Below are positions 1 to 35,644 of a DNA stretch of 64,000 nt, piece after piece. The stretch is from a phage, in NCBI GenBank assembly GCA_025677605.1, contig GCA_025677605.1_4110.1; one strand, 5' to 3'. Within the stretch, counting starts at the first letter, position 1. Every line of letters starts with the position of its first letter. The position numbers were made by a program, and so were the translations under genes. The notes below the pieces were generated by a model. It did no database searches. It saw only the letters and a program-made list of their open reading frames with translations, and had not been told where the DNA came from.

Positions 1-40
1 ATATGGTTATAACATCGAACTAGGTAATTATAATTACTAT

Positions 41-3000
41 ATGTACGAAAACTTCCTACAAAGTGTTCGTTATACATATGATCATTTGGGTGTTGAAACT
101 GAAATTTCTGGATTGTACTACTATAACGTAGTTGGTAAAGATAATGAACTACACCTTAAGACCGATTGGGTTCGTTCTAAGGAAGATTCAAAGCAATTCG
201 TTAAACAAACGCCACAAATCGAACACACTGATATGTATCGTGTATTCAATACCGTATTCGAAATGGAAAACTTTAAAAATCCATTAGAAGGTATGTATGC
301 ATATGTTACTGAAGTGGATCGTACCTATCAATATTACAAAGAAGAACGTCAAACCTATATGGATTGGCATGTAATTAGTGGTGAAGGTATTCAAAGTGAA
401 CGTTTCAATCGCACATTTGAATTAGCCCAGAAAATTATTGATGGTAAGAGTACTGAAATCATTGAAATTCAAGTTGATGGTGTGGATGTAACCGATTATA
501 CACGTCATGTATATAATAACAAGGTTCAAAGCATCACTTTAGGTGAAGATGTAGCTCTTAAAGATGAATCAGTGATTCAAATTAGAACATACAGCAGTAC
601 TGAAGTACCAAATAAAGAGTTGGGTGCATATGAAATCCCAATCAACTTACAAAATAACCCATACAACGATAATATTCTTTATATCAACCAAAGTAATTTT
701 ACATTACATTTTAAAGATATCATTCAAAAGAATATCACCAGTGGTTCCGTTGATGATTTCAACGACTACGAAGATCGTTTGTCTAAAGGTTTAGTGGATA
801 ACTCCGTTGGTACTAAGATTATTCAAAACGAAGCATCAATGCTACCGTTAATGGCACATTCTGCAAATGAAGATATTGACCTATTTGAATCTGTATTGTT
901 TATGCAATCCGAATATTTCCGTTTCGTAAACAAGTTCAATACACAAATGATCCGTTTGTACAATGAGAACCCAGCAAACTTCTTAGCTAATAATGCTTCT
1001 AATATTGTTGATGAAATTCTAACAATTATTAATATGGGTCATGATAATACTTTCCCATTCTATTATGATAACGTAGCAAGTACTTCTGGCTTCATTCGTG
1101 CGTTTGTACCACCAACTCCACAGTTTTTGGGTATTTTGAAAGCACACGTTCCAGAAAAAGCAACATTTTTGAATGCTGGTAGTAAGCAAAGCTGTTATAA
1201 CATCAGTCATACAGGTGCAATCACTAAAGCATACCGTGTAATAAACGGTGTTGATAAAATGGATGACGTTATATATGAGTTAGAAAATAGAATTTTCAAT
1301 AGTATTGATGTTATTTTCAAAGATGAAGATTACCAACCTAAGCTAGATGCTTCTGATCTTTTCCCAACTCCGTATTACAGAGATACAGAGTATAATGACG
1401 AAGAGAAAAAGAACTTACTACTACGTGGTTATATTAATTTCATCGCAACCAATGGTATCAGTAACAGTTCACATGATTATGATCCAAATAACTGGATGAC
1501 TTGGAACTATACTGGAACACATTATATGGTTAATGGTCAACAAACACAAATAGCAGCCCGTGGTTCATGGCGAGCAATCTACACTGACCAATTTGGTACA
1601 TATCGCCCAGCAACCCATCCGTGGGAAATGTTTGGTTTCTCCCAACGTCCAGTTTGGTGGAACCAGGAATATGAACCTACCGCAGTTCAAGTTGGCGAAC
1701 GTGATGGTGATGTTGTTTATGTATATGAGGCATTAGTTATCAACGAACAAGGTAACATGGTTCCTAGTGGGTTATGGGACGTTGGTAACGAGAAAGGTGA
1801 TAGCTCAACGGGTACTATCTTGTTTGGTGCACGTAAAGGTCAATATGACAAGTACAAACGTTTTGGTACACAACCATTTAAGATCACTAAAACAGGCAAG
1901 CAGACAGCATCTGGTGTTGATATTTGCGTCATTGAGTACATTGCTCCTGAAGTTTTAGGTCTTGTATATGGTAGTCTAAATCATCGTGCTGAACCGTGGA
2001 CTTATGGTGATATGGGTGATATGGAATTCACTTATATGAACACAGCAATGTTTGCATATGATGAATTATTGATGTTATTCAAAGCTAAACCTGCACAGTT
2101 CACAAACTATTTCTGGGATACCCGAAATAATACATTAAAAACTGTATCTGGTAATGAACCACAGTTTTTATATGGTGATACTCGTTTACGTTTGAACTTT
2201 AATAGTGATACAATCGTACATGGTGAGAATAGTACTCGCGTTATTGGTTATCAAATGATTGTTAGTGATTATTTGATGTATCAAAACAAAAATATTACAA
2301 CTAAGTACGGTGAAATTGTTCGTTCTTCTCATATTAATGTGGGTCATAAACTAGGTGGATTCACTAAAGCTGACCAATTAACATTTACATCAGAAGCAAC
2401 TGGTCTAATTTCACAAGAAAACCAATCTATCGGTTTAGTTCGTTCTAATAATATTAGAAATGAGCAAATGAGTGCAATTAAAATTACTTGGACTGGTAGT
2501 GCTTACCAAATTGATGGTTATGATTTAGTTTCTGCAACATTCAATTATAAATTGCCTGTTAAAAACGGTCATAAAGTATCTTTGAAAGTTGATAATCGTA
2601 ATGTTGTTCATTATAATGAGTGGAAAAATGATGCATCCATTCCTTACGGAACTTTGATGAATACCTTCCAGGAAGTTTACACATTTATTTGTGGTTATGG
2701 TGAGTATCTAAAGCAACATGGTTGGATTTTTGAAGAAGTTGATGAATCTGGTATCCAACAGGACTGGAATACAATTGCAAAAGACTTTTTAATCTGGAGT
2801 CAACAACAATTGAGTACTGGTGAATTCATTTCTTGTACCCCATCAGCAATTAATGCTAAATTTGGTACAGATTTTGGTTCAGTTCAGTCAATTGCACAAA
2901 ATAGTGGTGGTGTTTGGTCATTATTAGATGATTCAAACCAAGGTATACGTCAATTTGAGATTGAAACATCTCGTATTGGTAACATATTCACGGTAAGAAC

Positions 3001-6000
3001 TACTGAAGAATCAAATAAACGCATGGCACTTATTCGTTTAAGTATCAGTTCTTATGAACATGCTGTTATTTTTGATGATCAGACTATTTTCGGTGATTAT
3101 ATCTATGAACCAACCTATGGTGCAGTTCAAGAATTGATTAAATTGTATGGATATATCACTGGTTCATGGTCTGGACGTTTACAAGCTCCTGGATTTATCA
3201 TCCTAGAAGCTGGGACATTACCATCATTTGAAACTTTGGTGTCTAATTTCCAACATTATTATGATAATGAAACCCCAGTTAGTGATGTTCAATTAAATGA
3301 ACTTTCAAACCACTTAATTGGCTATCAGTCTCGTGATTACTTACAACGTATGATCACTAATGAGCCTGGTCGAATTGATTTCTATAAAGGTTTTATTCAT
3401 GATAAAGGCACTAACCAAGTACTAGAAAAAGTATTACGTGTATCTAAATCATATAATACTGATGAGTATAAAGCATTACAAGAATGGGCATTCCGTGTTG
3501 GTTCTTATGGTAACATTGATGGTGTTAAAAATCTTCAATTTAAACTAATTAATAATGAGTTTAAACAACAACCACAAATGATTACGTTCGACCGTTATTC
3601 CGATAAGGTTGAATCTGAGAATGAAATTGTATATTATGGTGAAATTGGTGAAGATTCACGCTGGATTAGTCGTCCAAAAGGTAAATTCTCATTCCCTATG
3701 CGTAATGGGAGAAGTGAGAATATCCAATTACCTAATATTGGACCAGTAACCCTAGATGAAATTGATTATACCACATTAAATTACGAAACTGCAAATCAAG
3801 ACCGCATTAGTTATATGAATAATTCTGGTAAAATCCCAACATCTGTTTGGATGTTCCAAGATATCAATAACGAATGGAATGTGTATGATTTAGTAGATAC
3901 TGGTATTACAATGGTTTCTATTACACCAATTGAAAGTGAAGATCCATATGCTGAGCAATATTGTAAAGTACTATTGTCTGATGATATCCCACTCAATGAT
4001 GGTGATTATTATTATTTTGTTGATGAAACAAACTTTATGCCTGATGCCCTACGTGATGAATGCCAATACTACACTTCTGGACTAGATCCAAAAGTTATGG
4101 TAGTGCCATTTGACACTTCCATTACTATTGACTTTTCAACAGTAGAATCAGCACCACGTTTGTATCGTTATGTTAGTAGATTTAGTACTCAACAAGAACG
4201 CGATGAATATATTGCTAAAAAATATAGTTACAGTGCACCTGAAAGCACTTTGTTTGACCGTCCTACTACGTATGATGAAAGAACAAACATTACTGCATTG
4301 TATTTGAATGTGTTTGACCCAATTAACGGTGTTATTCCTGGGGTTGCAATGCAAGATGTTGATTTCATCTCTCCAGTGGACCCAGCACAGTATAGCAGTA
4401 ACGGTGAACTATTACAAGCATGGGGTGCTGAAAAGGTAGGTAAAGTGTGGTGGAACACTAGCACTGCATTCTATCTGGATTATACCCGTCCAATCTTTGA
4501 TGAGGATGGTAACGTTGATGTAAAAGCAACTAATGAATATAAGCGTTATAATTGGGGTAAATTATTACCACACAGTGTTATTGATGTTCTAGAATGGGTT
4601 AGTTCACCAGTAGAACCATACAACTGGGAAAAATATTGTGCAGAACAAGCCAATAAAAATAAAAACAATACTATGTATCTCCCAAGTGGGATTGCAATGG
4701 ATGAGAACTACAGTTCATCTATGGAATATGATCCAATCACTGATACATATGTAGTTCGTTATTATTTCTGGGTTCGTAATACCATTTATGTTCCACCAAT
4801 GACTACTCGTAGTAAGTCTTGTACTGATATTGCACGTATTATTCAAGATCCAACACAATTGAATGTTCCTTGGTTTGCACCTATTAATGAAAATAGTTTC
4901 ATTCTAAGTAATATGCAATTTGAAGTTAATGATGATACAAGCATTTTGACAATTTCATATAGAAATGACAATATCGAAGTACTGAAGCATGATCAATATC
5001 AACTTTGTAAAGAAGGTGATAGTTATGACTTTAACCCAGATATTTGGAATTCACTATGGAACTCACTAATTGGTCAAGAAACTACTTCAACTGGTGTTGT
5101 AAATGAAATAATTTATCCTAAAGTTGAAACTGGTTTAGGTTCTAATAAAACTTGGTTCCAGAATGTCATTGAAGCTCGTCGTGCGTTTGTTGAAAGTGCA
5201 AATAACTTTTACCGTTCACAGAACATCACAACTAACAGTGTTGTTATGAATGATGTGTTTAATGTGAAAACATTAAAAATGAACCCAAATGATATTACAT
5301 TCCGTGTTCTATCATTTAACAATGAATTGGTAATTGCACCAGAAGATAACCGCTTTAAAGAGAATGATGCAGTATTTGTAAGTTCCATCGGAACTCTACC
5401 AGCACCATTATCTTCTAGTTCAGTATATTTTGTTCACATTGATCCAAATGGATACATTCAATTGATGAACAGCCCAAGTACAGTTGGTAGTACTGTTACA
5501 ATCACTCTAGAAAATAGAGGTGAAGGTCAACACAAGATGATTAAACAAGCTGACTTCATAGAATCACTTGGTACATCTTTGGATATGACCCAGTACTGGA
5601 ATCTGGCTGATTGGTACGATACTGGATACGATAGCAACACTGAATATACACAAGAAGTTAGTTTAGATGACGCAAACACTAAAAATTACCAAATTGGTGA
5701 TATTATCCGTGTAACTGATAGTGATGGTGTTTGGACATTATACATCAAGACTGCATCTCGTAATAATATATACTGGAAAGCTATTGGACGTGAGAATAGT
5801 ACAGTTGAATTGAATTCAATGTTATATTCTGGGTACAATGTTTACAATGATGATGGTTCTTTGAATTCTCATGAGGTTAACGTTCGTAATGCGTTAGCGT
5901 TGTTGAAAAATTCATTCAACTTATATCAAAGTAATATTGTTTTTGATATGGTTAAGTACGTACACACTGAACAAAGTGTTGTTGACTGGGTATTCAAAAC

Positions 6001-8800
6001 CTCATATATCTATATTGTAGGTTTAGAACAATCTCTCGTACAAAACTACTCAAATGACAACTTGATTAATCAAATTGTTGAGTACTTCGAAGAAGTTAAA
6101 CCATACAGAACCAAAATCCGTTCTCAAATAGAACAGAAAACTTCTGATGATGATTTGATTAATGGTATCAGTAATGACCTTGACCCAGATGGCTATATTT
6201 TAGTTGATGGTGTGTGGGTTAAGACTGAAAAAGACATTTGGGATTTAGAATATGCACAATTTAATGACGTAACCCAACGTTGGGAAAAGATTGGTTCACT
6301 ACCAAGTGACTTTATCACACCTAACAGACGATTCCAAGAAATCGACGTTATTATGCATTATGATAATATTCAATGTGACCCGTATGATAGTAATTATACA
6401 ATTGATGAGTTGAAATCAACCAATAGTAAGTATCAATCTAATGCTTCGGATATAGGAAATGATTATGAGTTACAGAGATATGTTTATACATTCCCTGAAT
6501 ATGATAATAATACCTTAATTTCACAGATTGGTATTGAAATGACTACCAAATATTCAGATTTGGATATTAGTAATGGTGTCATTAAAGGAATTGATGCATG
6601 GTATAAAGCCCATTCAACTGATATTGCAATGACTGACCAATTTACTGCTGATTTGGAGCAGGTAACTGCTGATACAAACAACAGTAACATTTTAGAAGAC
6701 GTTAAGAAATATATTCAATACAATACATTGGCAACTCGTGTGAAAATGTTTAAGAATATATCTGATGACATGGTTTCTAATGAGATTGGTTGTCCATTTA
6801 AGGGTACGAACTATAATGATAATCCTAATACTCGCCTACCTTTTGGGTTCAGTGCAAGTAGTGATTACAACTATGGTTATTTTGAGATTAGTATTGAACT
6901 ATATGAAAAATATGTCGATATGATCAAGAAAAATCACCCTGAGTTTACTAATGAAGACCAAGTTCGTAATATACTAGAGATAGAATATGGTGTTTATTGC
7001 TACAAGTATGATACCACATTAAATGACCGTTATTATTCTGATACCGTTCATGTGTTATCTGCAATGCGACAAACATTTAATAAGAATATTCTAGATCATT
7101 ATTATGTTGCTAGAGAAATCTTAAGTAATCGTGCAGTTGATAAGTATGCTTTTGTTATGATGCCAAGGAAATATGTGTATGTTGTGAATGCGGCAGGTGA
7201 ATATCTACCGATTCCTGAAAGTTACAGCATATCTGATTTCATGGAAGACTTATTCATAACAACCGGAGAATCAGTTGTATTGGCTGAAATTGATTTAAAT
7301 GATTTACCACAAGACCAGAATAATCCAATGTATTCTGCATATGTTGAAGTACTGGAAAGTATCAATACTGCAAAATATTTCAATGATATGAATGCATTCG
7401 ATAACTTGGCATTGGAATCACAAACCAAATCCATTAAATGGGAAGTTAAAGATAGTGAGATTGATCCTTATATCATCGACATTTCTGAACTAAACCCATC
7501 AGGAAGAACAATGGCACAATTACGTTTCACTGTTGATGGTTACGGTTTCGATGAAGTTGCTCAAGAGCAATTAAAAGACACAAGTAGATTCCAGATTGAG
7601 GGTATGATCGTACAAAACCCTTACAATATGTCAGAAGCAGTTGTAAGTATTCCATCATATGATATTGTCATTGAGAATATGGGTAAAGATGTGTTCAAAG
7701 AATCTGAAAAATACTTCTTCCCAATTTCAGAAATTAAAACAATTACTGAAATCAAAGTTCACGATGAAGGTTTGAAAGATGGTGATAAGGTTATGATTTT
7801 CACGCCAGATGGTGAAGATTATGTACGATTCCAAGACGGTAACTGGGTAACTATATTAAGTGCTAGTAAAATCCAATCCTCTAAAAAACCAAAACTATAC
7901 ACAGTACGTGTATTGGGTAATGGTAACGTAGAGTTGGTTGATAGTAATGGTGTAGTGTTAATGTTTGATAGTATAACTAAGCGTGAAAGTAATGAGCGTT
8001 TTTATACATTATCAATGAACTTAGTTAGAATCCGCACTTTCCAAGACCCTGAGTTTGATGACAATGGACTTAAACTATATGAAAATAATCGTCATTACAG
8101 TATACATGCATTGAACTATGAAGTATTCTATGACGAAACATTATATGGTGGTAAATTCAATGATGGTATCACACCTGATGAAATTGATTTGTGGTTAGTT
8201 TCCAATGAGATTTTTGAAGTTGATGGTATTACAATTGATAATGGTTACAATCAGCCAATCTCTGGTAAAGGTGTCCTGGGTGAACTAGTACGAGCTAAAA
8301 TGACTGATGGTATTGAAATCACTGTATTTGAATACGATGTTGATGTTATTCAACCAGTACTAAGTTATGATCGCGTGTGGCAGTATGCACAACCTGTGGT
8401 CAATAACACGTTCATCAAAGAAGTAGGATGTAGTGTAATTAACATTACAACCGTTGAAGATGAGGCAATCACTTATGTTGCTAAACCTCGTTCAATAAGC
8501 CCATATATCATTACTGATTCAGTACTGTCAGGTGCTGCGGCACAGAATGATGATATTATTGTGGTTGGATATGAGAAGGTTCAGGTAAGAAACACTGACC
8601 GTCTATTACGTGGTGTCATGTATAGTGCGGAACATAATTTTACTAAAGGAACGTCTTATAGCTTTAATGGATTGAACTTGGGGAGCATTGATAAGTTTAC
8701 TCAATATCAAAACTTCTATCCACCAATTCCATTAGATACATTCAGAAATGGATTGTCAATTACTGGAACTGATATCGAAAATCTATTGAATATTCAATAA
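41..8800 (+). CDS. Giant protein (2919 aa), function unknown; possibly virion-associated
   Basis: Single uninterrupted 8.76-kb ORF; overlapping antisense ORFs are short. No catalytic motif recognised by eye. Followed by a bidirectional terminator. Confidence 0.85.
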   Translation: MYENFLQSVRYTYDHLGVETEISGLYYYNVVGKDNELHLKTDWVRSKEDSKQFVKQTPQIEHTDMYRVFNTVFEMENFKNPLEGMYAYVTEVDRTYQYYKEERQTYMDWHVISGEGIQSERFNRTFELAQKIIDGKSTEIIEIQVDGVDVTDYTRHVYNNKVQSITLGEDVALKDESVIQIRTYSSTEVPNKELGAYEIPINLQNNPYNDNILYINQSNFTLHFKDIIQKNITSGSVDDFNDYEDRLSKGLVDNSVGTKIIQNEASMLPLMAHSANEDIDLFESVLFMQSEYFRFVNKFNTQMIRLYNENPANFLANNASNIVDEILTIINMGHDNTFPFYYDNVASTSGFIRAFVPPTPQFLGILKAHVPEKATFLNAGSKQSCYNISHTGAITKAYRVINGVDKMDDVIYELENRIFNSIDVIFKDEDYQPKLDASDLFPTPYYRDTEYNDEEKKNLLLRGYINFIATNGISNSSHDYDPNNWMTWNYTGTHYMVNGQQTQIAARGSWRAIYTDQFGTYRPATHPWEMFGFSQRPVWWNQEYEPTAVQVGERDGDVVYVYEALVINEQGNMVPSGLWDVGNEKGDSSTGTILFGARKGQYDKYKRFGTQPFKITKTGKQTASGVDICVIEYIAPEVLGLVYGSLNHRAEPWTYGDMGDMEFTYMNTAMFAYDELLMLFKAKPAQFTNYFWDTRNNTLKTVSGNEPQFLYGDTRLRLNFNSDTIVHGENSTRVIGYQMIVSDYLMYQNKNITTKYGEIVRSSHINVGHKLGGFTKADQLTFTSEATGLISQENQSIGLVRSNNIRNEQMSAIKITWTGSAYQIDGYDLVSATFNYKLPVKNGHKVSLKVDNRNVVHYNEWKNDASIPYGTLMNTFQEVYTFICGYGEYLKQHGWIFEEVDESGIQQDWNTIAKDFLIWSQQQLSTGEFISCTPSAINAKFGTDFGSVQSIAQNSGGVWSLLDDSNQGIRQFEIETSRIGNIFTVRTTEESNKRMALIRLSISSYEHAVIFDDQTIFGDYIYEPTYGAVQELIKLYGYITGSWSGRLQAPGFIILEAGTLPSFETLVSNFQHYYDNETPVSDVQLNELSNHLIGYQSRDYLQRMITNEPGRIDFYKGFIHDKGTNQVLEKVLRVSKSYNTDEYKALQEWAFRVGSYGNIDGVKNLQFKLINNEFKQQPQMITFDRYSDKVESENEIVYYGEIGEDSRWISRPKGKFSFPMRNGRSENIQLPNIGPVTLDEIDYTTLNYETANQDRISYMNNSGKIPTSVWMFQDINNEWNVYDLVDTGITMVSITPIESEDPYAEQYCKVLLSDDIPLNDGDYYYFVDETNFMPDALRDECQYYTSGLDPKVMVVPFDTSITIDFSTVESAPRLYRYVSRFSTQQERDEYIAKKYSYSAPESTLFDRPTTYDERTNITALYLNVFDPINGVIPGVAMQDVDFISPVDPAQYSSNGELLQAWGAEKVGKVWWNTSTAFYLDYTRPIFDEDGNVDVKATNEYKRYNWGKLLPHSVIDVLEWVSSPVEPYNWEKYCAEQANKNKNNTMYLPSGIAMDENYSSSMEYDPITDTYVVRYYFWVRNTIYVPPMTTRSKSCTDIARIIQDPTQLNVPWFAPINENSFILSNMQFEVNDDTSILTISYRNDNIEVLKHDQYQLCKEGDSYDFNPDIWNSLWNSLIGQETTSTGVVNEIIYPKVETGLGSNKTWFQNVIEARRAFVESANNFYRSQNITTNSVVMNDVFNVKTLKMNPNDITFRVLSFNNELVIAPEDNRFKENDAVFVSSIGTLPAPLSSSSVYFVHIDPNGYIQLMNSPSTVGSTVTITLENRGEGQHKMIKQADFIESLGTSLDMTQYWNLADWYDTGYDSNTEYTQEVSLDDANTKNYQIGDIIRVTDSDGVWTLYIKTASRNNIYWKAIGRENSTVELNSMLYSGYNVYNDDGSLNSHEVNVRNALALLKNSFNLYQSNIVFDMVKYVHTEQSVVDWVFKTSYIYIVGLEQSLVQNYSNDNLINQIVEYFEEVKPYRTKIRSQIEQKTSDDDLINGISNDLDPDGYILVDGVWVKTEKDIWDLEYAQFNDVTQRWEKIGSLPSDFITPNRRFQEIDVIMHYDNIQCDPYDSNYTIDELKSTNSKYQSNASDIGNDYELQRYVYTFPEYDNNTLISQIGIEMTTKYSDLDISNGVIKGIDAWYKAHSTDIAMTDQFTADLEQVTADTNNSNILEDVKKYIQYNTLATRVKMFKNISDDMVSNEIGCPFKGTNYNDNPNTRLPFGFSASSDYNYGYFEISIELYEKYVDMIKKNHPEFTNEDQVRNILEIEYGVYCYKYDTTLNDRYYSDTVHVLSAMRQTFNKNILDHYYVAREILSNRAVDKYAFVMMPRKYVYVVNAAGEYLPIPESYSISDFMEDLFITTGESVVLAEIDLNDLPQDQNNPMYSAYVEVLESINTAKYFNDMNAFDNLALESQTKSIKWEVKDSEIDPYIIDISELNPSGRTMAQLRFTVDGYGFDEVAQEQLKDTSRFQIEGMIVQNPYNMSEAVVSIPSYDIVIENMGKDVFKESEKYFFPISEIKTITEIKVHDEGLKDGDKVMIFTPDGEDYVRFQDGNWVTILSASKIQSSKKPKLYTVRVLGNGNVELVDSNGVVLMFDSITKRESNERFYTLSMNLVRIRTFQDPEFDDNGLKLYENNRHYSIHALNYEVFYDETLYGGKFNDGITPDEIDLWLVSNEIFEVDGITIDNGYNQPISGKGVLGELVRAKMTDGIEITVFEYDVDVIQPVLSYDRVWQYAQPVVNNTFIKEVGCSVINITTVEDEAITYVAKPRSISPYIITDSVLSGAAAQNDDIIVVGYEKVQVRNTDRLLRGVMYSAEHNFTKGTSYSFNGLNLGSIDKFTQYQNFYPPIPLDTFRNGLSITGTDIENLLNIQ

Positions 8801-8801
8801 C

Positions 8802-8833
8802 AAAAAAGGAGAGCCAATGGCTCTCCTTTTCTT
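8802..8833. terminator. Bidirectional intrinsic terminator between convergent genes
   Basis: A-run, then perfect hairpin GGAGAGCC-AAT-GGCTCTCC (about 8808-8826), then T-run; reads as hairpin plus U-tract on both strands. Confidence 0.8.
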
Positions 8834-8834
8834 T

Positions 8835-11120
8835 TTACACTACAGATGGGGTTTTAACTTGACGTTTTGGTTTGATACCCAACTTTCCGTTAATCACATC
8901 AAATGTTACGTTACCACCATTTACCAGTGAACCGCATAGCATTTCTTTAGCCAGAGGAACACGGATGTTCTGCTCGATTGTACGTTTCATTGGACGTGCA
9001 CCCATTCCAGGCTGAACACCATTTGCTTCTAACCATTCACGAGCCGCTTTAGTCAGTGTTACTTTCACGCCACGCTCTTTGATTTGCTCATTTAGACCAG
9101 CCATGAACTTATCAATAACGCTCTGGATAGCTTCACTGGATAGCTCATTAAACTTCACGATGCTATCGATACGGTTTAGGAATTCAGGTGGTAGGAAAGC
9201 TTTCACTGCCTTCTCCTGTGCTGTTTCACCACCACTCAAACCCAGACTACGTTTATTTGCATCTGCTGCACCCAAGTTGGTTGTCATAATAACTGTTACG
9301 TTGTTAAAGTATACAGTTTTACCCTGTGAACCAGTTAGGTGACCTTCATCCAGAACCTGTAGGAAGGTTAGCAGTACTTTAGGGTGTGCTTTTTCAATTT
9401 CGTCCAGCAGTAGAACTGCATTCGGGAATTGCTCAATTTTGTCGAGTAGCAGACCATTACCAGTATCGTGACCAACATAGCCAGGAGGTGAACCAATTAG
9501 TTTTGCAACGGTATGTTCTTGTGAAAATTCAGACATATCGAAGCGAATCAGTTCAGAACCCATTGCATCGGCTAGTGCTTTAGTGATTTCAGTTTTACCA
9601 GTACCAGACGGACCGACAAACATGAATGCACCCTGAACACTTGCTTTCTCACGAAGTCCTGCACGTGCAACCATTACGTTATCAACCAATTTCTCCACTG
9701 CTTCTTCTTGACCGAATACACGACTACGAAGTGCTGCTGGTAGTGACTTCATACGTTCAGTTTCAGTACAAGCTACTACGTTGATATCCAAGTTTGCAAT
9801 TCCCGCAACAACTTCTTGAATTGTGCGTAGTGAAATCACATTATCAGATTCATCGCGTGAACGTTTCTTAGCTGCTGCTGCATCCATAATGTCGATTGCT
9901 TTGTCTGGGAAGTGTTTGTTCTTCAGGAACTTATCACTCAAAGACACAATCGCATCCATTGCTTCAGTACTGAAAGTTACGTTATGGAATTTCTCATATG
10001 TACCTTGCAGACCATTTACAATCGCACGAGTTTCTTCAATAGTTGGCTCAACTACGTCAATTTTCATGAAACGACGAGTCAATGCACTATCTTTCTCGAT
10101 GTTTTTACGATATTCATCATAAGTAGTTGCACCGATTACACGAATCTCACCACGAGATAGTGCTGGTTTCAACATGTTACTCATATCCATTGAACCGTTG
10201 CTTGCAGAACCTGCACCTACCATGATATGGATTTCGTCAATGAACACGATTGTATTTTCACGTTTCTTCAGTTCTTTGAGAAGATTATCAATACGTTCTT
10301 CGAATTCACCACGATACTTAGTACCAGCGGTTAGTGCACCAACGTTAAGAGATAAAATCTCAATGTTTTGTAGATGTTCTGGTACATTACCATCAACAAT
10401 GGCTTGTGCTAGACCGTCAACAATCTGAGTTTTACCAACACCAGCTTCACCAGTAAGAATAGCATTCTTCTTAGTTTTACGAGCCAGAGTTTCAATTAGT
10501 GCATCCAGTTCTTTTTGACGACCAATCATTGGGTCCAGTTTACCATCTTTAGCCAACTGTGTTAGGTTGGTCGTGTAATCTTCGATTGATTTCTGTTTTG
10601 ATGCAGGTTGTTGTTGAGCCACCTTTTTCTCCCCAGTAGGTTCATCAGCGATGCTTTGTAGGTTAATTTCAGAATCAAGAGATTCTACATATTTCTGAAG
10701 AGTGCGGGCCGCTTCAGTACGAGTTACACCCTCTTCCAACAATGCTGCTTCTAATGCAGTGTTTGGGAATGACAAACATTCAAACAGTACAAAGAATGCA
10801 TCAATTGAGAAATCGTCACGTTTGAGTTGTTCGATGACAGATTTCTTAGATAGTTCTTGCATTACACGATTGACGATTAGTGTAGTGCGATTAACTTCTT
10901 CCCCCATAGTGCTGCGTGGTGCGTGTGGAACATTGGTATTTTTCAGATATTCAATCAAGCGGTCACGCACTTTCGTTGCGTCAACGTTCATTGTACCAAA
11001 TACATCAATAATGCTATCCACTGTCAGTACTGTAGCACTGATGTGATCGATTGTCAAGAAAGTATGACCCATAGAGGTTGCAAGGTCGTCGCTGCTTTTG
11101 AATAGCTGTGTTAAATTCAT
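8835..11120 (-). CDS. ClpA/ClpB-family double-AAA+ unfoldase
   Basis: N-terminal Clp_N-like repeats; D1 Walker A GEAGVGKT and Walker B FIDEIH; D2 Walker A GPSGTGKT with LLLDEIEKAHP; SLGL loop at the position of the ClpA IGL ClpP-docking tripeptide. Confidence 0.9.
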   Translation of the reverse strand: MNLTQLFKSSDDLATSMGHTFLTIDHISATVLTVDSIIDVFGTMNVDATKVRDRLIEYLKNTNVPHAPRSTMGEEVNRTTLIVNRVMQELSKKSVIEQLKRDDFSIDAFFVLFECLSFPNTALEAALLEEGVTRTEAARTLQKYVESLDSEINLQSIADEPTGEKKVAQQQPASKQKSIEDYTTNLTQLAKDGKLDPMIGRQKELDALIETLARKTKKNAILTGEAGVGKTQIVDGLAQAIVDGNVPEHLQNIEILSLNVGALTAGTKYRGEFEERIDNLLKELKKRENTIVFIDEIHIMVGAGSASNGSMDMSNMLKPALSRGEIRVIGATTYDEYRKNIEKDSALTRRFMKIDVVEPTIEETRAIVNGLQGTYEKFHNVTFSTEAMDAIVSLSDKFLKNKHFPDKAIDIMDAAAAKKRSRDESDNVISLRTIQEVVAGIANLDINVVACTETERMKSLPAALRSRVFGQEEAVEKLVDNVMVARAGLREKASVQGAFMFVGPSGTGKTEITKALADAMGSELIRFDMSEFSQEHTVAKLIGSPPGYVGHDTGNGLLLDKIEQFPNAVLLLDEIEKAHPKVLLTFLQVLDEGHLTGSQGKTVYFNNVTVIMTTNLGAADANKRSLGLSGGETAQEKAVKAFLPPEFLNRIDSIVKFNELSSEAIQSVIDKFMAGLNEQIKERGVKVTLTKAAREWLEANGVQPGMGARPMKRTIEQNIRVPLAKEMLCGSLVNGGNVTFDVINGKLGIKPKRQVKTPSVV

Positions 11121-11159
11121 GTTCTCTCCTATGTGATTCTTCTCACTGTCATTAAAATC

Positions 11160-11187
11160 ATTATATCACATTCTTTCAGTTTGTCTA
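11160..11187 (-). promoter_or_regulatory. Sigma70-type promoter (extended -10 TGaTATAAT, -35 TAGACA, 16-nt spacer) upstream of the ClpA-like gene
   Basis: Minus strand reads TAGACA-16nt-TATAAT with TG upstream of the -10; about 35 nt upstream of the start codon at 11120. Confidence 0.6.
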
Positions 11188-32552: not shown

Positions 32553-34019
32553 TTACGAACGTTGGCGTTTTTTGTCCGCTTCATATTCGTAGTGAACAGT
32601 TTCACCAAATGGTGCTACTTTGTTCGGGTTACTGTGAATCACAAACAGTGTTTTACAGTAGTTAGGATCACCCCATGACTGCCACGGTTCACCATCGGTA
32701 AACATGATAAGCTGTTTAGGCTTATAATTGTCATGCTTCATGTGAACCCAAACTGCTTCAAAGTCAGTACCGCCACCACCTTTTACTGGATATTCAAGAA
32801 TCTTACGTTCTTCACCAGTTTTATAATCCATCACAGTATAAACTTCAGTATCAAATGTCATGATACGAATTTTAAACTGCTTGAATTGTTTAGTGATGCC
32901 TAGTACTTCACTGATGAAATCACGAAGCATATCTTCACTGATAGAGCCTGATGCATCGAGTGCAATTGCAATATCAATATCGTCATCTGGTTTCATGCCT
33001 GGGAAGATTGGATTCCCGTAGAATGAACCGTTAGAACCAAAACCAGCACCCCACGAACGGCGGCTTGGGCTTTGATAGGTCGCATCGGACTTCAACCAGC
33101 TACGAAGAGTACGTTGAAGTTTAGAACGCCAGTCAATTTTTGGTTCTTTAAAGTTATTGATCATACGAGCGATTTCAGCAGGAGTACCACCTGCACGAGC
33201 AGCATTCATCATTGCTGTTTTGAAATCGTCCATGTATTCACGTTTTTGTGCTTCAGATGCACCACCTTCACCATCTTGTGGTACATCGTGTTGGTCAATG
33301 GTAGTGCCTTTGCCTTTACCATTTTGGATATCACCAAAAGTACCGCGTGATTTACCTTCACCTTCACCACTACCAGATTGTGGTTGTCCTTCACCTTCAC
33401 CTTGTTCTTGTTTATCTTCTTCTTCTAGAAGAATATAAATCTCTTCTGCGGTCATACCATCATACTTCTTATCATACAACCATTGACTTTGAATCTTACC
33501 AATTTTTTCACGAACAATAATTTGGTTGATTGCATAGTCTGCTGCACGGTTGTATCGTTGTGGATCACGCATCCCACGACGAAGGAAGTGATCGTATGCA
33601 CAGTGAAGAATTTCATGACAGATAACTGCAATCAGGTTTTCATCAGTCAAACCTTCGGTCATTTCTTTCAATTGTTCTTCAGTTACTTCAGGATGCTTCT
33701 CACGAATTGCTTCTTCGTATGCTTCTTTCTTGCTTGGGTCTTGAATACCCATGATAAATTCTACGTTATAGAATAAATGTTTACCATCTACTGCTAAGGT
33801 ACGACACCATGTATTGTTTGCAACTGGACGCAGACGTGAAGCCAGTACACCAAAGAATGGAGCAGTTAACATCAGAGAAGTACGAGCAAGAATCAAACGG
33901 TCTTGGCATTCTTTCTGGAGTTGTGGTGTTACGTCGCTAAATTTCTTATCGGACATGATATTTCCTCGTTTAGTTAAGATAAAAGAAGGATACCATGTGG
34001 CATCCTTCTTGTCAAACAT
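32553..34019 (-). CDS. VWA-domain protein with N-terminal HExxH metallopeptidase-like motif
   Basis: HExxH in AVICHEILHCAYDH; Gly/Glu-rich linker; VWA MIDAS motif DASGS in IALDASGSISEDM. Confidence 0.85.
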   Translation of the reverse strand: MFDKKDATWYPSFILTKRGNIMSDKKFSDVTPQLQKECQDRLILARTSLMLTAPFFGVLASRLRPVANNTWCRTLAVDGKHLFYNVEFIMGIQDPSKKEAYEEAIREKHPEVTEEQLKEMTEGLTDENLIAVICHEILHCAYDHFLRRGMRDPQRYNRAADYAINQIIVREKIGKIQSQWLYDKKYDGMTAEEIYILLEEEDKQEQGEGEGQPQSGSGEGEGKSRGTFGDIQNGKGKGTTIDQHDVPQDGEGGASEAQKREYMDDFKTAMMNAARAGGTPAEIARMINNFKEPKIDWRSKLQRTLRSWLKSDATYQSPSRRSWGAGFGSNGSFYGNPIFPGMKPDDDIDIAIALDASGSISEDMLRDFISEVLGITKQFKQFKIRIMTFDTEVYTVMDYKTGEERKILEYPVKGGGGTDFEAVWVHMKHDNYKPKQLIMFTDGEPWQSWGDPNYCKTLFVIHSNPNKVAPFGETVHYEYEADKKRQRS

Positions 34020-34030
34020 TCTTTTAGTTA

Positions 34031-35356
34031 TTAACCAAGAGAACGTGCTTTGCGTACTAGGTCAGAGTACTTCATAACGAAGTCTTTGAACGCTGGAACA
34101 TCTTTGTACGCAATCGCTACCTTATGTTGAGTGATGGTACGAATTGCTAGTACTGCCAGTTCTGCCTGAGTTTCGGAGAAGTTACGGTCCAGGAAGGTGA
34201 TGAAGTTGTTGCACAGCTTGCCCCACTCTTCAACTGGAAGACGTTGTTCTTGCTTCTCATTGTACAGGTCGATAATTTTATAAACCAGATTCAGAGAGAT
34301 GAAGTAGTTCGCAGAAATATCCAGCGTTGCATCAATCTCTTTAATCTCACCCTGTAGGATGGACATAGTATCTGGTAGTTTAGATACGTTTTCTACGTAT
34401 TCGATATATTCAGTTGCTACACCTTCACCAACACGACCAGCGATTAGAGCACGGAACACTTCTTTATCAATGTTGTTGCCTTTCTTCAGGTCTTCGTAGC
34501 GTGCTACTGCTTCCCATGAACGTGGAGAAGTACCACCACTGTGAGAAGGATCTTGTGGGCTAAGGGTGTTGAAGTACTTAGCACCAGTGTTGTTGATGAA
34601 CGCAACAGTACCTGGGTTCAAACGCTTAGCAATCGCGTAATCGTCAATCCAATCTTGATGGTAAGGAACCATTTCGATGTGGGTCATACGGTCACGTAGT
34701 GGCGTTGCCAGAGAGAACGTTACGCCGCCATCAGTTTCACGGTTACCTGCTGCGAGAATCAGTGCAGTCTTAGGTAGCTTCATCTCACCAACACAACGGT
34801 CGAGGATTAGCTGATAAGACGCTGCCTGTACAATCGGCATAGCAGAGTTAATTTCGTCAAACAGGATAACACCTTTCCAATCTGGAGACAGTTTCAGTAC
34901 TTTAGGTGCTGCCCATACAACTGCTGTTTCAGCGATATAATCTTTAGCTGTTTCCAGTTCAGATTCAATCAGTTGTTTGCCATCCATATCCAGGAACACT
35001 TTTTCAGGGACTGGGATACCACGTAGGTCACTTGGTTCAATCTGTGACAAACGGAAGTCGATGAAGTTAGTGTCTTGGTCAATCAGTTTTGCTTCAAACG
35101 CTGCCAGTTCGCGGCGAAGTGCATCAGCATTTTCAGTATCAACTTCAATTTGTTGTTTCATGAACTCGATTTTAGCCAAGTTATCCTTACGAAGAGGATA
35201 GTTCTCGTCAGCGTATTGACGTGCAATCGCAGACTTACCGATACCAGGGCTACCCCAAATCATCAGACTATCCTGAATTTTATCTGCCAGAGCCATAGCC
35301 ATTTTTGCTTTCTTAGGAGTCAGTTTTACGTTCAGGATATCTTGTTGTTCGCTCAT
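34031..35356 (-). CDS. MoxR-like AAA+ ATPase
   Basis: Walker A GSPGIGKS, Walker B ILFDEIN, ~100-aa insertion between them; immediately upstream of the VWA gene; AAGGA RBS. Confidence 0.85.
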   Translation of the reverse strand: MSEQQDILNVKLTPKKAKMAMALADKIQDSLMIWGSPGIGKSAIARQYADENYPLRKDNLAKIEFMKQQIEVDTENADALRRELAAFEAKLIDQDTNFIDFRLSQIEPSDLRGIPVPEKVFLDMDGKQLIESELETAKDYIAETAVVWAAPKVLKLSPDWKGVILFDEINSAMPIVQAASYQLILDRCVGEMKLPKTALILAAGNRETDGGVTFSLATPLRDRMTHIEMVPYHQDWIDDYAIAKRLNPGTVAFINNTGAKYFNTLSPQDPSHSGGTSPRSWEAVARYEDLKKGNNIDKEVFRALIAGRVGEGVATEYIEYVENVSKLPDTMSILQGEIKEIDATLDISANYFISLNLVYKIIDLYNEKQEQRLPVEEWGKLCNNFITFLDRNFSETQAELAVLAIRTITQHKVAIAYKDVPAFKDFVMKYSDLVRKARSLG

Positions 35357-35523: not shown

Positions 35524-35551
35524 ATTATATCACATCGTTCAGGCTTGTCAA
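35524..35551 (-). promoter_or_regulatory. Consensus sigma70-type promoter P1 (TTGACA-16nt-TGaTATAAT)
   Basis: Minus strand reads TTGACA, 16-nt spacer, TATAAT preceded by TG; perfect -35 and -10 hexamers. Confidence 0.75.
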
Positions 35552-35616
35552 CAACTTTTTTTCTTTCTTTTTCAATCTCACATCTTGTGATTTTGAAATC
35601 TTGCTTCGTGACGTTC

Positions 35617-35644
35617 ATTATATCACGTTAATCTGTACTGTCAA
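35617..35644 (-). promoter_or_regulatory. Consensus sigma70-type promoter P2, tandem copy of P1
   Basis: Second TTGACA-16nt-TGaTATAAT about 93 bp upstream of P1, same orientation; flanks also similar. Confidence 0.75.

Follow-up and report, generated by a model that had tools for sequence, protein, structure and literature searches.

The closest described relatives of the system considered here are the ClpA unfoldase of Escherichia coli and the Clp proteins recorded in jumbo phages. In E. coli, the N-domain of ClpA is the ClpS-binding domain, and in the ClpAP complex solved by cryo-electron microscopy residues I617, G618, L619 and I620 of ClpA occupy the ClpP pocket, with I620 and H621 contacting the pocket and R192 (bioRxiv 10.1101/820209). 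Among phages, ClpA, ClpX, ClpP and ClpS appear in the list of jumbo-phage proteins of Iyer et al. 2021 (PMC7824862), and the conservation of ClpA in Rak2-like phages has been noted by two comparative-genomics papers, among them Attai et al. Here we describe the clpA-like gene carried on the minus strand of a 64,000-nucleotide stretch of phage DNA (contig GCA_025677605.1_4110.1 of assembly GCA_025677605.1; hereafter the window). The gene itself is already known from GenBank annotation, PHROGs and two papers with genomic mentions, and calling it here contributes nothing beyond the existing 'ClpA-like protein' annotation and PHROG; the finding of interest is that phages of this group carry a three-part set, made up of ClpA, a catalytic ClpP and a ClpS-fold protein, and not a lone unfoldase.

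Architecture and ancestry of the phage ClpA

The features of the gene and its product, with positions in the window or residues of the protein, are as follows.

8835..11120, minus strand: clpA-like gene, open reading frame with an ATG start, 761 residues, 83.5 kDa
10671..11120, minus strand: N-domain, residues 1-150, divergent double Clp_N repeat
9756..10565, minus strand: D1 AAA+ module, residues ~186-455, no middle-domain insertion after D1
10428-10451, minus strand: D1 Walker A, GEAGVGKT
8898..9755, minus strand: D2 AAA+ module and D2-small domain, residues ~456-741
9591-9614, minus strand: D2 Walker A, GPSGTGKT
9237-9248, minus strand: SLGL, residues 625-628
9237..9245, minus strand: L626-G627-L628, the loop-tip tripeptide, at the position of ClpA I617-G618-L619
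Residues 221-341: AAA (Pfam)
Residues 361-442: AAA_lid_9 (Pfam)
Residues 497-654: AAA_2 (Pfam)
Residues 660-739: ClpB_D2-small (Pfam)

An earlier note on this DNA had given the span of the gene as 8835-11187; the open reading frame is real, but it ends at 11120, and 11187 is the edge of the upstream promoter. The product is the orthologue of A4_579 of Escherichia phage A4 and of gp581 of phage 121Q, and is 99.9% identical to A4_579, which GenBank labels 'ClpA-like protein'. Phage A4 (ON286972.1, 355,528 bp) is a Rak2-like jumbo phage of the genus Asteriusvirus with E. coli LF82 as host, and its genome is 99.5% identical to the window over 8 kb around clpA. The two sequences are not strictly colinear, the offsets at the two ends differing by about 1 kb, so that at least one indel lies within the 64 kb. 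Homologues of the clpA product with at least 80% coverage were found in 93 phage records, including 121Q gp581, PBECO4, RaK2, GAP32 and CBB, and the PHROGs family is phrog_4871, 'ATP-dependent protease' (1006 bits). The same orthologue is variously labelled in GenBank as 'hypothetical protein', 'heat shock protein' and 'putative virion protein and lysozyme murein', and in the fragmented CMSTMSU record it is named 'ClpB protein'.

When the protein was compared with E. coli K-12 ClpA by BLASTP, 43% identity was obtained over 733 residues, with no insertion at the D1-D2 junction. Pairwise alignment placed all the D1 motifs (GEAGVGKT, pore loop TKYRGEF, Walker B FIDEIH and Arg fingers RR) and all the D2 motifs (GPSGTGKT, pore loop PPGYVGHD, Walker B LLDEIE, Arg finger NR and sensor-2 GAR) opposite those of E. 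coli ClpA. The earlier proposal of a Clp-family unfoldase with two complete AAA+ modules is borne out by these intact motifs. The top NCBIfam model was ClpA TIGR02639, which matched residues 3-741 in one stretch with 762 bits, whereas the ClpB, ClpV, ClpK and ClpG models matched the protein as two separate stretches. The best PDB matches were likewise the E. coli ClpA entries 1ksf, 6w1z and 7uiv (E ~1e-179; residues 17-741 against 20-734), and the ClpC, ClpB and Hsp104 matches were split in two. The ClpB, ClpC and ClpV alignments are divided because the phage protein lacks a middle domain, and the single-stretch alignment without a D1-D2 insertion thus indicates that the protein is of the ClpA type. 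Nevertheless, the 762 bits on TIGR02639 fall below the equivalog cut-off of 993, and the 654 bits on NF008263 fall below that of 1350. On these scores ClpA is the best-scoring family, yet the protein belongs to a divergent phage-specific clade.

A ClpB-type disaggregase was considered and rejected, the coiled-coil M-domain being absent and the ClpB alignment stopping at residue ~424 to resume in D2. The earlier note had regarded a clear ClpB-type middle domain as the sign of a ClpP-independent disaggregase; no such domain was found, and the protein gives one colinear ClpA alignment instead. As to the Clp_N-like repeats that had been proposed, the N-terminal domain has the Clp_N double-repeat fold, although by sequence it is only weakly visible: one repeat scored 19.1 bits, under the Pfam cut-off of 20.7, the second was not detectable by sequence, and the isolated N-domain retrieved ClpA N-domains from the PDB at E ~0.09 only.

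The phage proteins form a clade that extends from 100% to ~53% identity and scores at least 846 bits, compared with at most 666 bits for cellular ClpA in a large protein collection. The ratios of nonsynonymous to synonymous substitution rates (dN/dS) of clpA were 0.085 against 121Q, 0.12 against RaK2 and 0.25 against GAP32. As judged from such comparisons, clpA has long belonged to the phages and is maintained by purifying selection. The idea that it was captured recently from the enterobacterial host was rejected in view of the 43% identity to E. coli ClpA and of the separation in bit score between the clade and the cellular proteins.

Phage ClpP, the ClpS-like protein and the docking loop

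Searched by tblastn with ClpP and ClpS sequences of both E. coli and phage origin, the 64-kb window gave no homologue of either protein. The earlier statement that no ClpP-like gene lies in the window is therefore right, but the alternatives drawn from it, a hijacked host ClpP or a stand-alone unfoldase, were an artefact of the 64-kb window: a search of the phage A4 genome revealed both a catalytic ClpP and a ClpS-fold protein. These two partner genes were read in phage A4, a near-identical relative, and not in the window's own genome.

A4 88,155-88,850 (L002:39155-39850), about 90 kb from clpA and outside the window: A4_455, ClpP
L006:18162-18707, outside the window: A4_74, 181 residues, 'protease adapter protein', directly after the phage IF3 gene

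A4_455 matched PF00574 with 143.7 bits (positions 2-179 of 182) and was 36% identical to E. coli ClpP; it scored 156.6 bits on the cellular ClpP model TIGR00493, compared with 52.4 bits on the ClpP-related head-maturation model. Its triad, S113/H139/D188, aligned with E. coli S97/H122/D171 (mature numbering), and the same held in all nine phage orthologues compared. In the A4 genome, clpA is the only detectable Clp-type unfoldase gene and A4_455 the only detectable catalytic ClpP homologue. A ClpP with an intact triad was present in every ClpA-bearing phage checked (A4, 121Q, RaK2, CBB, GAP32, XbC2, pEa_SNUABM_19, Munch and XaC1), the gene usually adjoining DNA ligase and phosphoesterase genes. 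The three-part set is of long standing in the phage lineage and is subject to purifying selection.

Other features of this peptidase gene and its surroundings may be recorded here. The nine phage ClpPs share a conserved C-terminal extension of about 20 residues (...RNEKGQYLVKRRGGVEEWV) that is absent in E. coli ClpP. About 7 kb downstream of clpP lies A4_467 (L002:46219-46824, phrog_26024), a ClpP/crotonase-like protein with a signal-peptide-like N-terminus; it was rejected as a second ClpP in a ClpP1/ClpP2 arrangement, with 17 bits, 24% identity over 135 residues and no triad at the aligned positions. A4_469 (L002:47227-47829) is an HslV-family peptidase homologue (phrog_1040, 77 bits), and no HslU is annotated.

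The relationship of A4_74 to ClpS was seen only with the family profile and the structure model: the Pfam ClpS match was sub-threshold (20.3 bits), and BLASTP against E. coli ClpS showed no similarity (E=3.5). In the model, A4_74 has the ClpS alpha/beta core fold; its N-terminal ~65 residues are predicted with confidence to be folded (three strands plus helices), whereas canonical ClpS has a disordered extension, and a C-terminal helix is present that canonical ClpS lacks. The N-degron pocket of E. coli ClpS is formed by N34, D35, T38, M40 and H66. A4_74 has D82, D83, T86, A88 and N114 at these positions, three of the five differing from E. coli, so the canonical pocket residues are not all present; the residues are invariant within the phage family. 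The CBB protein AMM43882.1, cited as a phage ClpS by Iyer et al. 2021 (PMC7824862), would probably be the A4_74 orthologue, lying near the CBB IF3 gene as judged by its accession number alone.

With regard to docking, SLGL (SLGLS in the translation) was found opposite ClpA S616-I617-G618-L619 in the phmmer, BLASTP and MAFFT alignments, so that the proposed position of the docking loop stands in three independent alignments. The canonical ClpP-docking consensus of ClpX and ClpA is [LIV]-G-[FL], and the L-G-L of the phage protein fits it. The phage loop is two residues shorter than that of E. coli ClpA, I620 and H621 being absent. Conservation was counted over 30 phage-clade ClpA sequences. Position 617 was hydrophobic in all of them (I in 14, L in 6, M in 6 and V in 4), position 618 was Gly in 26 (N in 3, S in 1), and I620 and H621 were deleted in nearly all. 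The tripeptides of the clade include IGM, IGV, IGA and LGM, as well as MNM and MSM without Gly. Hence, in calling the loop 'retained', the earlier note was right as to its position and its fit to the consensus in this protein but overstated its conservation, the tripeptide being variable across the clade.

Promoter, probable terminator and genomic context

The features that flank the coding sequence in the window are the following.

11160..11187, minus strand: sigma-70-type promoter with an extended -10, TAGACA-16-TGtgaTATAAT, 11 of 12 consensus positions plus TG
11124-11130, minus strand: Shine-Dalgarno sequence AGGAGAG, between the promoter and the clpA ATG
8804..8830: terminator-like hairpin, bidirectional, with a perfect 12-bp stem, an A run upstream and a T run downstream
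1..8800, plus strand: giant structural gene, frame open from base 2, truncated by the window edge

The extended -10 promoter that had been assigned to clpA was found with the match given above. Promoter-like sites in the region were no more numerous than in shuffled sequence. An extended -10 (TGnTATAAT) also precedes clpA in 121Q, RaK2, GAP32 and CBB despite diverged surroundings, and the clpP promoter of A4 has the same form as that of clpA, TAGACA-16-TGtgaTATAAT. The pattern TAGACA-N13-15-TGnTATAAT occurred at two sites in the 355-kb A4 genome when both strands were scanned, one 5' of clpA and one 5' of clpP, and was not found in any of 40 first-order Markov simulated genomes. Both promoters have the form TAGACAAA...TGTGATATAAT in A4, and two of the three copies of the 9-mer GTAGACAAA in that genome are at them. 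In 121Q and RaK2, clpP has its own sigma-70-type extended -10 promoter with a different -35. The exact match between the clpA and clpP promoters is thus specific to A4, and it would suggest that the two genes are co-regulated.

The 11-mer TGTGATATAAT, which contains the extended -10, occurs seven times in the A4 genome, always on the early/middle-gene strand; clpP and clpA are each preceded by one copy and an ATPase/VWA pair by another, and in the window the minus-strand copies are at 11170 and 35534. These sites may mark one promoter class. The pair in question, at 32553..35356 (minus strand), consists of a weak-AAA ATPase, A4_560 (441 residues), followed by A4_561 (467 residues), a DUF2201_N putative metallopeptidase with a VWA-like domain, and resembles a MoxR/VWA-type pair; it is preceded by two tandem TTGACA...TGTGATATAAT promoter-like sites at ~35524..35644. 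The virion proteome of phage phAPEC6 contains a 49.5-kDa 'ATPase', gp265c (PMC7247149), which may be the orthologue of the ATPase of this pair.

At its 3' end, clpA faces the giant gene, as had been proposed: the stop of the giant gene is at 8800 on the plus strand and that of clpA at 8835 on the minus strand, with the hairpin between them. The hairpin is kept in 121Q, RaK2, GAP32 and CBB with compensatory changes in the stem (GGAGAGCC/GGCTCTCC compared with GGGAGCC/GGCTCCC), and because of this conservation it is probably a bidirectional intrinsic terminator. In A4 the giant gene is A4_580, 'structural protein' (9,978 nt, 3,325 residues), and orthologues of its product have been found in the virions of CBB and phAPEC6, the phAPEC6 protein being of 381.9 kDa (PMC5259590, PMC7247149). 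The position of clpA between the tail-completion and giant structural genes is conserved in A4, 121Q, RaK2, GAP32 and CBB.

Despite this location, the possibility that ClpA is a virion or injected protein was rejected. In the CBB virion proteome, CBB_233, 234, 236 and 237 were detected and CBB_235 was not (PMC5259590 Table 4), and comparison confirmed that CBB_235 is the ClpA orthologue; the phAPEC6 virion proteome includes giant, baseplate and tail proteins and no Clp protein (PMC7247149 Table 1). The GenBank label that names it a virion protein and lysozyme seems to be an error of annotation.

Candidate mechanisms and comparison with known Clp systems

We consider it rather probable that the three genes provide the phage with a ClpAP protease of its own and a ClpS-like adaptor, a non-virion system whose unfoldase is expressed from its own sigma-70-type promoter. 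In favour of this stand the orthology to ClpA with intact machinery and no middle domain, the position of the loop, the catalytic ClpP as the only candidate partner in A4, the co-occurrence of ClpA and ClpP, the matched promoters of A4, the absence of ClpA from the virion proteomes and purifying selection. The phage ClpA, as a double-ring AAA+ unfoldase, would be the ATPase partner of A4_455 and would form ClpAP inside the infected cell. Substrates would be engaged by the hexamer at its N-domain and pore loops, unfolded at the expense of ATP and passed into ClpP, with the L-G-L loop tips serving for docking, and A4_74 would probably act on the N-domain as an adaptor or specificity modulator. 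Host sigma-70 RNA polymerase would probably transcribe clpA from the extended -10 promoter, which would make it an early/middle, non-virion gene even though it lies inside a late tail/baseplate module. We infer from the sequences the binding of ClpA to ClpP, its binding to the ClpS-like protein and the timing of expression; the substrates might be host proteins, early proteins of the phage or giant structural proteins that have misfolded.

Several observations weigh against this assignment. Position 619 of the loop varies widely in the 30 sequences (M 16, A 4, V 3, F 3, L 2, G 1 and H 1), and a true ClpP-docking constraint would predict tighter conservation of the tripeptide. On the peptidase side, the A4 ClpP pocket is unlike that of E. 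coli ClpP at 12 of the 14 loop-contacting positions of the E. coli complex (bioRxiv 10.1101/820209), only Y62 and M92 being kept; six changes are conservative (L23M, E26D, L48V, F49W, I90V and L189I), and the non-conservative ones include Y60T, F82S, L114G and R192P, most of which recur across the phage ClpPs. The E. coli structure is therefore not simply transferable to docking in the phage. The argument from matched promoters applies to the A4 group only, since in GAP32, XbC2, pEa19 and Munch the clpP gene lies directly against the gene before it and lacks a separate promoter. The partner genes come from A4, whose match of ~99.5% was measured in 8 kb only, with about 1 kb of indels elsewhere. 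Finally, a search of the literature for biochemistry, genetics or transcriptomes of the Clp proteins of Rak2-like phages returned genomic mentions only.

The changes on both the loop and the pocket are compatible with a phage-specific interface whose two sides have co-diverged, but the variability could equally reflect relaxed constraint. Covariation between tripeptide and pocket over nine phages showed no clear pattern, with too few independent points: A4 (LGL) and 121Q (IGM) have identical ClpP pockets, and F112 is kept only in the ClpPs of XaC1 (VGF) and RaK2 (IGV). It is possible, though we put it forward tentatively, that ClpS, ClpA and ClpP make up a self-contained orthogonal system with an ATPase-peptidase interface co-diverged from that of the host. 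Such a system would combine the short ClpA loop without I620/H621 and with a variable third residue, and a ClpP with the Y60T/F82S/L114G pocket, R192 lost and the C-terminal tail of ~20 residues, so that the phage Clp parts would dock on no host Clp partner and would escape titration by those partners. It would be used early, and the ClpS-like adaptor, with its altered pocket and extra folded N-terminal domain, would direct the destruction of particular host proteins, for example defence or stress-response factors. If the phages do have a private protease whose docking interface and adaptor specificity are distinct, this would be a tractable example of a regulated-proteolysis machine imported by a virus and a possible source of orthogonal ClpAP parts.

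ClpA might instead work without ClpP, as a chaperone or remodelling unfoldase that folds the adjacent 3,325-residue protein or assists tail/baseplate assembly, the loop being a relic or a contact for a non-ClpP partner. The conserved place of clpA between tail and baseplate genes, which also speaks against the protease assignment, could indicate such an assembly-chaperone role; moreover, the tripeptide is relaxed across the clade down to the Gly-less MNM and MSM forms, E. coli ClpA alone can remodel RepA, and the phage invests in folding with two GroES-like proteins and a DnaJ-zinc-finger-like protein. We regard this as unlikely, however: without a ClpB-type middle domain the protein is not a DnaK-coupled disaggregase, the first two positions of the tripeptide (30/30 hydrophobic and 26/30 Gly) are under more constraint than would be expected of a relic, all the phages examined, those of the MNM type included, have ClpP as well, and clpA is transcribed from a sigma-70-type promoter in the direction opposite to the neighbouring structural genes. 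Docking of the phage ClpA on host E. coli ClpP, alone or besides the phage ClpP, would redirect host proteolysis; it is suggested by the presence of ClpP in the host, by the fit of L-G-L to the consensus at the exact ClpA position and by the proposal of Iyer et al. 2021 (PMC7824862) that phage ClpS feeds host ClpAP. It nevertheless seems to us quite improbable, given that the phage's own catalytic ClpP would be redundant if host ClpP were enough, that the loop lacks the two residues, I620 and H621, that contact the E. coli pocket and R192, and that relatives with IGM, IGV, IGA and MNM infect hosts with a standard ClpP. As for A4_455 really being a head maturation protease, which would leave ClpA without a dedicated phage peptidase, RefSeq and PHROGs do label its orthologues 'head maturation protease' (phrog_94), and one peptide of the CBB ClpP, CBB_104 (4.5% coverage), was recovered from CBB virions (PMC5259590). 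Still, this is very improbable, both on the scores of A4_455 on the two models given above and in view of A4_8, a distinct prohead protease (Peptidase_S77, T4 gp21 type) encoded between the portal, scaffold and major capsid genes; because the phages have this separate T4 gp21-type enzyme, the RefSeq label on the phage ClpP genes is probably wrong.

The proposed phage ClpAP protease with its candidate adaptor can finally be set beside the described Clp systems. Nearest are the Rak2-like ClpA proteins (A4_579, 121Q gp581, PBECO4, RaK2 ORF069, GAP32_229 and CBB_235; phrog_4871), of which the window protein is a member, sharing 99.9% identity with A4, 85-86% with the 121Q group, 74% with RaK2 and ~60% with GAP32 and CBB; they share the same synteny, promoter type and terminator, and differ in the tripeptide, LGL here and IGM, IGV or LGM elsewhere. 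E. coli ClpA is similar in length (758 residues compared with 761), has the N-domain, D1, D2 and D2-small regions in the same colinear order, likewise lacks a middle domain, and shares the Walker, pore-loop, Arg-finger and sensor-2 motifs and the hydrophobic-Gly-hydrophobic tripeptide at the IGL position. In contrast, the phage protein has an N-domain only ~20% identical to that of E. coli, a docking loop shorter by two residues and a place in a separate clade, and whereas E. coli has a clpS-clpA operon, the phage clpS-like and clpP genes are scattered through the genome. ClpC, which works with the MecA and McsB adaptors, shares with the phage protein the double ring of a Clp ATPase, the N-domain and the ClpP-docking loop, but it has a short middle domain that is missing here, and the candidate adaptor of the phage is ClpS-like, not MecA-like. 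ClpB and Hsp104 share with the phage protein the Clp_N fold, two AAA+ modules and strong sequence similarity in D1 and D2; they differ from it by their coiled-coil middle domain, and ClpB lacks the ClpP-loop tripeptide that the phage protein has.

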